NCBI RefSeq assembly: GCF_056746865.1
Contig: NZ_CM163382.1
Direction: 5' to 3' (one strand)
Length of the DNA stretch: 64,000 nt
Below, one piece after another: positions 42,952-46,812 of this stretch. The translations under genes and the position numbers were made by a program. The notes beneath the pieces were generated by a model, which worked only from the letters and a program-made list of their open reading frames with translations, had not been told where the DNA came from and ran no database searches. Every line of letters begins with the position of its first letter. Position 1 is the stretch's first letter.

Positions 42952-44100
42952 ATGTCCACGTATACCCGGCCTGTCATGCTTTTGCTGTCTGGCCTGCTTT
43001 TGTTGACTCTGGCGATCGCAGTGTTAAATACACTCGTGCCGCTTTGGCTCGCCCAGGAACATATGTCCACATGGCAGGTAGGCGTTGTCAGCTCATCCTA
43101 TTTTACCGGCAACCTGGTCGGTACATTGCTGACAGGGTATGTCATTAAGCGCATTGGCTTTAACCGCAGCTATTATCTGGCCTCCTTCATTTTTGCCGCT
43201 GGCTGTGCCGGCCTTGGCCTGATGATTGGATTCTGGAGCTGGTTGACTTGGCGTTTTGTCGCCGGCGTCGGCTGTGCCATGATTTGGGTGGTTGTTGAGA
43301 GCGCGCTGATGTGCAGTGGGACGTCATGTAACCGTGGGCGTTTGCTTGCTGCGTATATGATGGTTTATTACGTGGGAACGTTTTTAGGCCAGTTACTGGT
43401 CAGCAAAGTTTCAACCGAGCTGATGTCCGTATTGCCGTGGGTTACAGGTTTGACGTTGGCAGGGATCTTACCGCTGTTGTTTACGCGTGTGCTGAATCAG
43501 CAGGCTGAAAACCATGATTCGACGTCAATTACGTCAATGCTAAAACTCCGTCAGGCGCGGCTTGGCGTGAATGGCTGCATTATCTCAGGAATCGTTCTGG
43601 GATCTCTATATGGCCTGATGCCGCTGTTCCTCAATCACAAAGGGGTGAGCAATGCCAGCATTGGTTTCTGGATGGCGGTACTGGTCAGTGCGGGTATCCT
43701 TGGACAATGGCCGATTGGACGTCTGGCGGATAAGTTTGGTCGACTGCTGGTGTTGCGTGTTCAGGTCTTTGTCGTCATTCTCGGCAGTATCGCGATGCTT
43801 AGCCAGGCGGCGATGGCCCCAGCGTTATTCATCCTCGGTGCCGCTGGCTTTACGCTATATCCGGTGGCGATGGCCTGGGCTTGCGAGAAAGTTGAACATC
43901 ATCAACTGGTGGCGATGAACCAGGCCTTACTGTTGAGCTATACCGTGGGAAGTCTGCTTGGCCCGTCATTTACCGCTATGCTAATGCAGAATTTCTCCGA
44001 TAATTTATTGTTTATCATGATCGCCAGCGTATCGTTTATCTATTTGCTGATGCTGCTTCGCAACGCCGGTCATACGCCGAAACCCGTTGCTCACGTGTAA
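42952..44100 (+). CDS. ycaD: MFS transporter YcaD
   Basis: 382 aa; 12-TM-like hydrophobic profile; [27 protein letters not shown]. Confidence 0.88.
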
Positions 44101-44108
44101 ATGAATTC

Positions 44109-44150
44109 AAGCAGAGTGTGAACTTACTGTTTCACACTCTGCTTTTTTGT
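44109..44150 (+). terminator. Putative rho-independent terminator of ycaD
   Basis: Hairpin aagcagagtgtgaa...ttcacactctgctt followed by ttttttg. Confidence 0.7.
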
Positions 44151-44309
44151 TTCTTCTATCTGACTTGCTTTATTCCAAATTTTATTCGTTTAAAAATAAA
44201 ATGTGCAGCAGGTTATAATTTTGCATTTCGCTATTTCCGCACTTCTTATTTGCCGCGCATAATCCCTCGTTTTACAGATGCCCCTTTAATTTTGGCGAAG
44301 GATTTGTCT

Positions 44310-45740
44310 ATGGCTGGGAATGTTCAGGAAAAACAGCTGCGATGGTACAACATTGCGCTGATGTCTTTTATCACTGTCTGGGGTTTTGGCAACGTTGTTA
44401 ATAACTACGCCAACCAGGGGCTGGTGGTTGTTTTTTCATGGGTGTTTATCTTTGCGCTCTATTTCACACCTTATGCGCTAATTGTTGGTCAGTTAGGCTC
44501 GACCTTCAAAGATGGGAAGGGCGGGGTCAGTACCTGGATTAAACACACGATGGGACCCGGACTGGCTTACCTCGCCGCGTGGACCTACTGGGTAGTGCAT
44601 ATTCCCTATCTGGCACAAAAACCCCAGGCAATACTGATTGCGCTCGGTTGGGCGATGAAAGGCGACGGTTCGTTAATCAAAGAATATTCAGTCGTAGCGT
44701 TACAGGGGTTAACGCTGGTGCTGTTTATCTTCTTTATGTGGGTTGCTTCACGCGGTATGAAATCGCTGAAAATCGTCGGTTCTGTGGCAGGGATTGCGAT
44801 GTTTGTTATGTCGCTCCTGTATGTGGCGATGGCGGTAACCGCGCCTGCAATTACTGAAGTGCATATTGCGACCACAAACATTACCTGGGAAACGTTCATT
44901 CCTCATATCGACTTTACCTACATTACCACTATTTCAATGCTGGTTTTCGCGGTTGGCGGAGCAGAGAAGATTTCTCCTTACGTTAATCAAACGCGCAACC
45001 CAGGAAAAGAATTTCCAAAAGGGATGTTATGCCTGGCGGTGATGGTTGCGGTTTGTGCCATTCTGGGCTCACTGGCGATGGGGATGATGTTTGACTCGCG
45101 TAATATCCCGGATGACTTAATGACTAACGGTCAGTATTACGCCTTTCAGAAGCTGGGCGAGTATTACAACATGGGTAATACTTTAATGGTGATTTATGCC
45201 ATTGCGAATACCCTGGGACAAGTAGCTGCGCTGGTATTCTCGATTGATGCGCCGCTTAAAGTGTTATTAGGCGATGCTGACAGCAAATATATTCCAGCCA
45301 GTTTATGTCGTACCAACGCTTCTGGTACGCCCGTTAATGGCTATTTTCTGACCCTGGTGCTGGTGGCGATCCTGATAATGCTACCGACTCTCGGCATTGG
45401 TGATATGAACAATCTCTATAAATGGCTGTTGAATCTTAACTCGGTAGTGATGCCGCTGCGTTATTTATGGGTATTTGTTGCATTTATTGCAGTCGTTCGC
45501 CTGGCGCAGAAATATAAACCAGAATATGTCTTTATTCGTAATAAGCCTCTGGCAATGACCGTCGGGATTTGGTGTTTTGCCTTTACCGCCTTTGCCTGTT
45601 TGACGGGGATCTTCCCGAAAATGGAAGCCTTCACTGCAGAGTGGACCTTCCAGTTGGCGCTGAATGTTGCAACGCCGTTTGTGTTGGTAGGATTAGGACT
45701 GATATTCCCGCTGCTGGCGCGTAAAGCGAATGATAAATAA
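44310..45740 (+). CDS. ycaM: APC-family amino-acid transporter YcaM
   Basis: ORF 44118..45740; start at MAGNVQEKQLRWYNIALMSF gives 476 aa; polytopic membrane protein. Confidence 0.85.
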   Translation: MAGNVQEKQLRWYNIALMSFITVWGFGNVVNNYANQGLVVVFSWVFIFALYFTPYALIVGQLGSTFKDGKGGVSTWIKHTMGPGLAYLAAWTYWVVHIPYLAQKPQAILIALGWAMKGDGSLIKEYSVVALQGLTLVLFIFFMWVASRGMKSLKIVGSVAGIAMFVMSLLYVAMAVTAPAITEVHIATTNITWETFIPHIDFTYITTISMLVFAVGGAEKISPYVNQTRNPGKEFPKGMLCLAVMVAVCAILGSLAMGMMFDSRNIPDDLMTNGQYYAFQKLGEYYNMGNTLMVIYAIANTLGQVAALVFSIDAPLKVLLGDADSKYIPASLCRTNASGTPVNGYFLTLVLVAILIMLPTLGIGDMNNLYKWLLNLNSVVMPLRYLWVFVAFIAVVRLAQKYKPEYVFIRNKPLAMTVGIWCFAFTAFACLTGIFPKMEAFTAEWTFQLALNVATPFVLVGLGLIFPLLARKANDK

Positions 45741-45904
45741 TTATTGTGGTCGGTGACGCTGACTCTGGCAGATCTGACCCGTTTTTACATAATCGAGAAA
45801 TGCGCGTAAGCCGCAGGACATATACTGGCGGTTTGGGTAATACATTTGGAAGCTGTGCTGTAAGGGCGTTAGAAATAGAGCTCTGAATTATTTATGCAGA
45901 GCGG

Positions 45905-45940
45905 AATAAAAAAGCGGCAACTCAAAAAAGTTGCCGCTTT
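45905..45940 (-). terminator. Putative rho-independent terminator of pflA
   Basis: Hairpin aaagcggcaac-tcaaaaaa-gttgccgcttt with an A-run on + upstream (T-run on the minus strand), 10 bp past the pflA stop. Confidence 0.65.
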
Positions 45941-45949
45941 ACGGGGAAA

Positions 45950-46690
45950 TTAGAACATTACCTTATGACCGTACTGCTCAAGAATGCCTTTCACGCGTTC
46001 CATGGTCTCTTTCTTCGGTGGTTTAACACCATCAAGTTTGTATTCTTCACCCATCGCCACCCATTTGTGTTTGCCAAGTTCGTGGTAGGGGAGAAGCTCG
46101 ATTTTCTCAACGTTGCCCATATCACGGGTAAATTCACCGAGGCGATGCGCTGAATCGTCATCGTCAGACCAGCCTGGGACAACAACGTAGCGGATCCACA
46201 CCTTCACATTTTTGTTCGCCAGATATTTGGCGAACTCCAGCGTGCGGTGGTTGGAAACTCCAACCAGATTTTGGTGGATCTCGTCGTTCATCTGTTTGAG
46301 ATCGAGCATTACCAGGTCGGTTACTTCCAGCAGTTCATCAATCACCGGATCGTAACGACGAACAAAACCGTTGGTATCCAGACAGGTATGAATGCCTTCT
46401 TTTTTGCAGGCGCGGAACCAGTCACGAACAAACTCAGCTTGCAGGATTGCTTCACCGCCGGATGCGGTAACGCCGCCGCCGGAAGCGTTCATAAAGTGGC
46501 GATAGGTCACCACTTCCTTCATCAAATCTTCAACGGTAACTTCTTTACCGCCATGCGTGTCCCAGGTGTCGCGGTTATGACAATACAGGCAGCGCATCAG
46601 GCAGCCCTGGAAAAAGGTGATAAAGCGAATACCCGGGCCGTCTACGGTTCCACAGGATTCAAAGGAGTGAATGCGACCAATAACTGACAT
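45950..46690 (-). CDS. pflA: Pyruvate formate-lyase activating enzyme (radical SAM)
   Basis: ORF 45950..46717; start at [23 protein letters not shown] gives 246 aa; radical-SAM [10 protein letters not shown]. Confidence 0.95.
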
Positions 46691-46812
46691 TGCGGTGTTT
46701 CTCCAGATGTGGCCCATCTGAGGCCGTGTTGGTGCGCAGCTCGAAGGCTACGTCGAGTCTGTTTTGGCAGTCACCTTAAAGTATAGATAGCTGACAAAAA
46801 AGGCTCTCGTGC

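Follow-up and report, generated by a model that had tools for sequence, protein, structure and literature searches.

The DNA analysed here (the window) is a stretch of 64,000 nucleotides from contig NZ_CM163382.1 of assembly GCF_056746865.1, and the locus under study is the short spacer that separates ycaM from pflA. According to the list of open reading frames, the ycaM stop codon lies at 45738-45740 and that of pflA, on the minus strand, at 45950-45952, which agrees with the original prediction that the two stops (45740 and 45950) are 209 bp apart and leaves a spacer at 45741-45949. YcaM is 99.8% identical to its K-12 counterpart over residues 1-476 and PflA is 100% identical (tblastn); PflA also matches the NCBIfam profile NF008356 with 524 bits, and NCBIfam profiles support the identity of the neighbours in general (YcaC, YcaD, the APC-family permease encoded by ycaM, and PflA). 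RefSeq annotates the identical ycaM region in strain 042. The mechanically defined ycaM reading frame opens at a GTG at 44118 (540 aa), whereas RefSeq places the start at the ATG at 44310 (476 aa) in all strains checked, and the 64 additional codons upstream of this ATG (44118-44309) are probably not translated. The features of the locus are as follows:

44310..45740, plus strand: ycaM, APC-family permease (from the ORF list; 476 aa when the RefSeq start is used), left-hand flank of the proposed deletion, intact
45741..45853, minus strand: what is left of ycaN (LysR-type regulator) at its 3' end, the last 36-37 codons and the stop codon, in frame
45854..45863, plus strand: remnant of the ycaK tail, the last 10 nt including the stop codon (from multiple alignment)
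45864..45910, no strand assigned: diverged ycaK-pflA intergenic DNA, which aligns with E. albertii and with the cryptic Escherichia loci L006 and L007
45911..45940, minus strand: intrinsic terminator hairpin of pflA (from a terminator scan; 13-bp stem, T-run on the minus strand)
45950..46690, minus strand: pflA, for the pyruvate formate-lyase 1 activating enzyme (246 aa), right-hand flank of the proposed deletion, intact

In the K-12 reference (NZ_CP014270, locus L001) the order of genes is ycaD, ycaM, ycaN (minus strand, 909 bp), ycaK (plus strand, 591 bp) and pflA, with ycaN and ycaK transcribed divergently from a 99-bp intergenic region. The order given in the original prediction, with ycaN and ycaK between ycaM and pflA, is thus the one seen, and the case that would have spoken against an indel, a K-12 spacer also of about 200 bp, does not apply: the K-12 spacer measures 1680 bp, a net difference of 1471 bp. 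The flanks of the locus are collinear with K-12 (left, 2354 bp at 98.5% identity; right, 1407 bp at 99.1%), and between them (45853 / 45894) blastn finds 40 bp of the window in the place of 1511 bp of K-12, which bears out the claim that both genes are missing through an indel. When the junction is refined by multiple alignment, 45853/45854 corresponds to K-12 positions 2354/3831 of L001, and the missing segment (L001 2355-3830) amounts to 1476 bp rather than the roughly 1.8 kb first estimated. Within it lie the first 796 bp of ycaN, the 99-bp divergent region and all of ycaK except its last 10 nt, and its GC content (0.447) can be compared with that of ycaM (0.472) and pflA (0.503).

The spacer had been described as containing just the pflA terminator, with no repeats or scars in evidence. 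On both points the description needs to be revised, since more than half of the spacer consists of pieces of the two lost genes, 113 nt of the 3' end of ycaN and the last 10 nt of ycaK. The homology to K-12 is unbroken in blastn up to 45853, and tblastn places YcaN residues 267-302 on the minus strand directly past the ycaM stop codon. The ycaN remnant differs from K-12 ycaN at 4 nt and 1 aa, and translates in frame as FQMYYPNRQYMSCGLRAFLDYVKTGQICQSQRHRPQ, followed by the stop codon. In YcaN the Pfam LysR_substrate domain extends to residue 290, and the remnant spans columns that are invariant in the orthologues of Hafnia, Serratia, Pantoea and Shimwellia; no variation is seen in the block YYPNRQYM..LR.F.D among those of Pseudocitrobacter, Hafnia, Shimwellia, Serratia and Pantoea. 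The FQ.YYPNRQYMSCGLRAFLDY block is present in YcaN orthologues elsewhere; its absence there would have indicated that K-12 ycaN recruited its 3' end from existing spacer. The preserved reading frame of the piece, and its coding for the best-conserved C-terminal block of the family, mark it as a gene fragment and not as pre-existing spacer. It does not amount to a functional LysR regulator: only residues ~266-302 are left, with no helix-turn-helix, start codon or promoter.

The fragment has not gone unnoticed by automatic annotation. RefSeq (PGAP) carries a partial pseudogene at the equivalent of 45741-45851 on the minus strand in strains 042, GTEN_97, 702/18 and O157:H7 (EC042_RS29340 in 042, E5R32_RS11095 in GTEN_97), described as an incomplete 'LysR family transcriptional regulator' or 'hypothetical protein' that lacks its N-terminus. 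Unlike the present analysis, this annotation gives neither the name ycaN, nor the ycaK tail, nor the distribution of the allele.

The next 40 nt (45854-45893) have no counterpart in K-12 by BLAST, and local alignment to the 1.5-kb K-12 segment gave nothing convincing, yet they align with the loci of E. albertii, L006 and L007. When three cryptic lineages and E. albertii are aligned together with the window, the stretch resolves into the ycaK tail and diverged intergenic DNA. The tail itself was identified by aligning the window to K-12, E. albertii and the two cryptic loci L006 and L007: it reads TGTGCTGTAA in the window versus TGCACTATAA in K-12, and L006 and L007 retain a clearer version, GATGCACTATAA. 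Compared directly, 45854-45900 is only weakly homologous to the ycaK tail and intergenic region of K-12, and the relationship becomes convincing only through L006, L007 and E. albertii (L008). A filler or templated insertion was considered for 45854-45893 and rejected: a 50-nt query across the junction (45848-45897), run with sensitive blastn against all 5426 E. coli genomes, matched only this locus, in the 1023 genomes with the short allele, and the multiple alignment accounts for the stretch. The K-12-type ycaK-pflA intergenic region (L001 ~3850-3870) is without a stretch of about 14 nt (GCTGAATTAACTCA) that is present in L006 and L007 and, in a diverged form, in the window; from the alignment it is K-12 that appears to have lost it.

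The remaining element is the pflA hairpin, which is kept in all aligned Escherichia loci and also in a larger deletion allele that removes ycaM (described below). Being flanked by an A-run and a T-run it is potentially bidirectional; on the plus strand, that is, for transcripts arriving from the ycaM side, just TTT follows the stem. Beyond this terminator, scans for a functional sRNA or riboswitch in the spacer gave nothing: the Rfam matches were below threshold (21 and 17.7 bits, versus gathering scores of 58.7 and 42), and the promoter scan returned one promoter-like site against 1.1 expected by chance.

These observations make it very probable that the 209-bp spacer is the scar of a 1476-bp deletion of ycaN-ycaK, and that it represents an old and widespread allele. 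The direction of the change, which the original prediction implied and did not show, is now supported by the in-frame, conserved ycaN fragment and the stop-codon tail of ycaK, both of which argue for a deletion here rather than an insertion in K-12. The K-12 breakpoints fall in coding sequences that are unrelated. Neither IS ends nor long repeats, target-site duplications, integrase or tRNA genes were seen there, and the two sides have in common only an imperfect 7-nt microhomology (TGGaAGc / TGGtAGa). The exact breakpoint is ambiguous by a few nucleotides, since in another alignment CTGTGCT falls inside ycaN, with an internal gap of 10 nt. An origin by a mobile element was rejected, as the breakpoints show nothing beyond this microhomology and the junction sequence is unique to the locus in E. 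coli. With neither an IS element nor a long repeat involved, the segment was most likely deleted by replication slippage or by illegitimate recombination at the microhomology. What was lost would have been a self-contained cassette, a LysR-type regulator and a divergent flavodoxin-like NAD(P)H oxidoreductase; ycaM, pflA and the pflA terminator are intact. With ycaN gone, transcripts of ycaM would no longer enter that gene in antisense orientation but traverse about 170 nt of dead sequence on the way to the pflA terminator.

The distribution of the alleles was determined with junction-specific queries against 5426 complete E. coli genomes. The junction of the window, which had been taken for a strain-specific indel, occurs in identical form in 1023 of them (19%), among them 042, O157:H7 and O145:H28, at this locus and nowhere else; an allele carried by about one in five sequenced E. 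coli is an ordinary one. The intact ycaN-ycaK pair is found in 3318 genomes (61%; for example K-12, HB101 and O104:H4), and a larger deletion, in which ycaM is also gone, in 1047 (19%; for example clone D i14 and O25b:H4-ST131). In this larger allele (L004 2602-2697, equivalent to about 44101-45910 of the window) the terminator hairpin of ycaD is joined to that of pflA by CTGTGCAC, which gives a 96-bp spacer. About 38 genomes fall outside the three classes, IS-disrupted variants among them. The window thus carries one of three common, lineage-associated haplotypes at the locus, and the short allele is fixed in large parts of the species (042-like and O157:H7-like lineages). That the adjacency of ycaM and pflA is an artefact of assembly, or a very recent deletion at the laboratory or strain level, can practically be dismissed, given the same junction in 1023 independent complete genomes with up to ~5% sequence diversity and the 100% identity of 25 kb around the junction to many clinical isolates.

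Some individual strains depart from these haplotypes. Strain B1.H1.18 (L049 1936-3140), otherwise 100% identical to the window over 44000-46800, has an IS5 at the 3' end of ycaM (at about 45735 of the window), by which the gene measures 1425 instead of 1431 bp; this is a separate, later event found only in that strain. KE40 has an insertion of about 1.2 kb somewhere within an otherwise 100% identical match to 33000-57999 of the window. In 'E. coli' E69 (CP089930.1, L022 6429-11428) the 3' end of ycaM is 84% identical to the window at the DNA level, and ycaM is followed by no trace of ycaN, while pflA is missing from the next 5 kb, in which genes for a CHASE9-EAL protein (782 aa) and a GAPES2-GGDEF protein (446 aa) are found. 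Either the locus has been rearranged, or the strain belongs to a divergent Escherichia lineage under the label E. coli.

A scan for YcaM with one genome per species yielded 41 loci, and the comparison within the genus bears on the direction and age of the change. All four non-coli Escherichia representatives have a short spacer with decayed ycaN fragments that contain stop codons and frameshifts. The E. albertii type strain (L008) has a junction identical to that of the window. Its spacer runs collinear with the window's through this point and shows a like pattern of intergenic indels; the identity between the two is 85%, about as high as that of the adjacent 3' ends of ycaM (84%). In the cryptic Escherichia L006 and L007 the right breakpoint is the same as in the window and the left differs by about 5 nt. 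The cryptic L005 retains 153 nt of ycaN and no ycaK; its remnant contains stop codons, which confirm the decay of a pseudogene, and its different junction points to an independent deletion. There are accordingly three kinds of junction in Escherichia, keeping 102, 113 and 153 nt of ycaN. The ycaK tail of L006 and L007, together with the differently joined ycaN of L005, implies that an intact ycaN-ycaK preceded the short alleles, and the pair was lost at least three times in the genus (the window junction, the L005 type and the larger deletion that removes ycaM). The shared or nearly shared junctions on one side and the independent deletion on the other characterise ycaN-ycaK as an old and repeatedly lost module.

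The opposite polarity, in which K-12-type strains gained ycaN-ycaK by insertion and the window preserves the ancestral, unoccupied state with no deletion at all, draws on the wider phylogeny. In Citrobacter, Salmonella enterica arizonae/diarizonae, Kluyvera, Yokenella and Pluralibacter, ycaM adjoins pflA without ycaN/ycaK, or with unrelated cargo between them, and the pair was found between ycaM and pflA in none of the sampled non-Escherichia relatives that have ycaM. The short spacers of the four non-coli Escherichia, the cargo that the junction recurrently holds in other genera and the GC content of the missing segment, below that of both flanking genes, point the same way. However, an unoccupied allele cannot gain the 36 in-frame, conserved C-terminal codons of ycaN along with the stop-codon tail of ycaK, and the three junctions fit the erosion of a once-complete gene, which makes an insertion in K-12 highly improbable as the source of the difference. 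An ancient insertion before the radiation of Escherichia is possible, although that would not be the event that separates the window from K-12, and the ycaN-ycaK pair may itself be an insertion at a deeper level.

Within the preferred reading, a deletion, it has to be asked whether the short alleles of E. coli and E. albertii have a single origin. They could have arisen independently, by recurrent deletion at the same microhomology. Short microhomology does exist at the breakpoints, an imperfect internal repeat of ycaN (TCTGGAAGC / CTGGACGC) lies near the left one, and independent deletions are known at the locus (L005 and the larger allele). In addition, the ycaN fragment of the window, with 4 differences in 112 nt, is far nearer to K-12 ycaN than to the fragment of E. 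albertii. Against this, the window and E. albertii have in common the position of the junction, the indel pattern and the following 40 nt, a stretch that is unlike K-12 and occurs in no E. coli bearing ycaN-ycaK, and recombination with intact alleles inside E. coli can account for the K-12-like left part; the near-identity to K-12 ycaN itself suggests such a homogenisation. Independent origins are thus rather unlikely. From the common junction the allele of the window appears to be older than E. coli, and older than most strain-level indels.

This sits awkwardly with the species tree, as all sampled non-coli Escherichia have the short form and the intact allele must have persisted into A/B1-type E. 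coli. A long-lived polymorphism, an old introgression or recurrent deletion could each account for the pattern; of the three, recurrent deletion is ranked lowest, since the two species also have in common the 40-nt haplotype that follows the junction. It can be proposed, only tentatively, that the short haplotype is ancient, by descent or by old introgression, in 042- and O157:H7-type E. coli, in E. albertii and in the cryptic clades, and that the intact haplotype persisted in, or was re-imported into, K-12-type lineages. If true, this would constitute a trans-species presence/absence polymorphism of a regulator-enzyme cassette beside the pfl operon, and it could relate to differences between lineages in formate and anaerobic metabolism, a link suggested by the altered focA expression and formate utilisation of the K-12 ycaN knockout (PMC9068703).

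With regard to function, Pfam assigns HTH_1 and LysR_substrate domains to YcaN and a Flavodoxin_2 domain (NAD(P)H oxidoreductase) to YcaK, which is related to proteins of the KefF/MdaB type. The layout of K-12 ycaN/ycaK is like that of divergent cassettes of a LysR regulator and its target, with YcaK as the putative target; in the window this cassette is gone. A study that combined ChIP-exo sites with the transcriptome of a ycaN knockout reported ycaC and ycaD as binding sites or targets of YcaN (PMC9068703). In the knockout ycaC went down, ycaD and focA went up and the Biolog phenotype for formate utilisation was negative; the role of YcaN was listed as 'unknown' (PMC9068703). An effect of the deletion on the expression of the neighbouring focA-pflB is a matter of speculation. 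YcaN and YcaK are naturally missing from about 38% of the sequenced E. coli, with O157:H7, 042 and ST131 among them, and for this reason the YcaN networks and phenotypes obtained in K-12 (PMC9068703) are not transferable to those strains.

The three alleles can serve as simple lineage markers, and the practical consequences are otherwise small. Small accessory-gene indels, or 'K-islands', have long been catalogued between K-12 and O157:H7 or uropathogenic strains. The present case resembles them in that a segment of about 1.5 kb present in K-12 is absent from O157:H7-type strains, with collinear core flanks, a lineage-wise distribution and no mobile element; it differs in that identifiable stubs of both lost genes remain. 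The literature search found no description of this indel and no paper on the distribution of the allele or on the junction common with E. albertii; it returned only the functional study of YcaN and a paper on a nitroreductase library, in which E. coli YcaK is the naming reference for two Pseudomonas homologues. This is therefore a known kind of polymorphism with a remnant that RefSeq already annotates, to which the distribution and the E. albertii junction are a modest addition, and the deletion raises no new biological question. The locus does exemplify the repeated erosion of a two-gene cassette, and a junction between core genes that gathers genus-specific cargo.

Elsewhere, the closest orthologue of YcaN (79% identity) is that of Pseudocitrobacter corydidari, whose ycaK-ycaN pair is flanked by pflA and ycaD, and Hafnia alvei has the same divergent pair in an unrelated genome context. 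Kept together in both, the pair behaves as a two-gene cassette. As for the ycaM-pflA junction, four Citrobacter/Kluyvera loci (L010, L012, L032 and L041, at about 6400-11200) hold a 4.8-kb cargo with genes for a PTS EIIA, an EIIC-GAT and an EIIB-like component, split transketolase subunits and an RpiR/SIS regulator, and three others (L015, L020 and L033, at about 6420-7360) hold a single gene for a 263-aa secreted protein with a signal peptide and no Pfam match. Judging by these cases, insertions seem to recur at this site across genera.

Three further observations concern the relatives of the flanking genes. In Salmonella arizonae/diarizonae (L014 7877-9540, L016 5654-7338) the gap between pflA and pflB is about 1.7 kb, compared with about 190 bp in E. 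coli, which indicates a separate insertion between those two genes. A 396-bp contig of Corallococcus aberystwythensis (L045, coverage 0.67) that is 99% identical to E. coli ycaM is almost certainly contamination. Full-length relatives of YcaM that are 62-66% identical occur in anaerobic Firmicutes (L034-L040: Clostridium, Pelosinus, Anaerospora and Sporomusaceae), much closer than vertical descent predicts, which suggests transfer of this APC-family permease across phyla.
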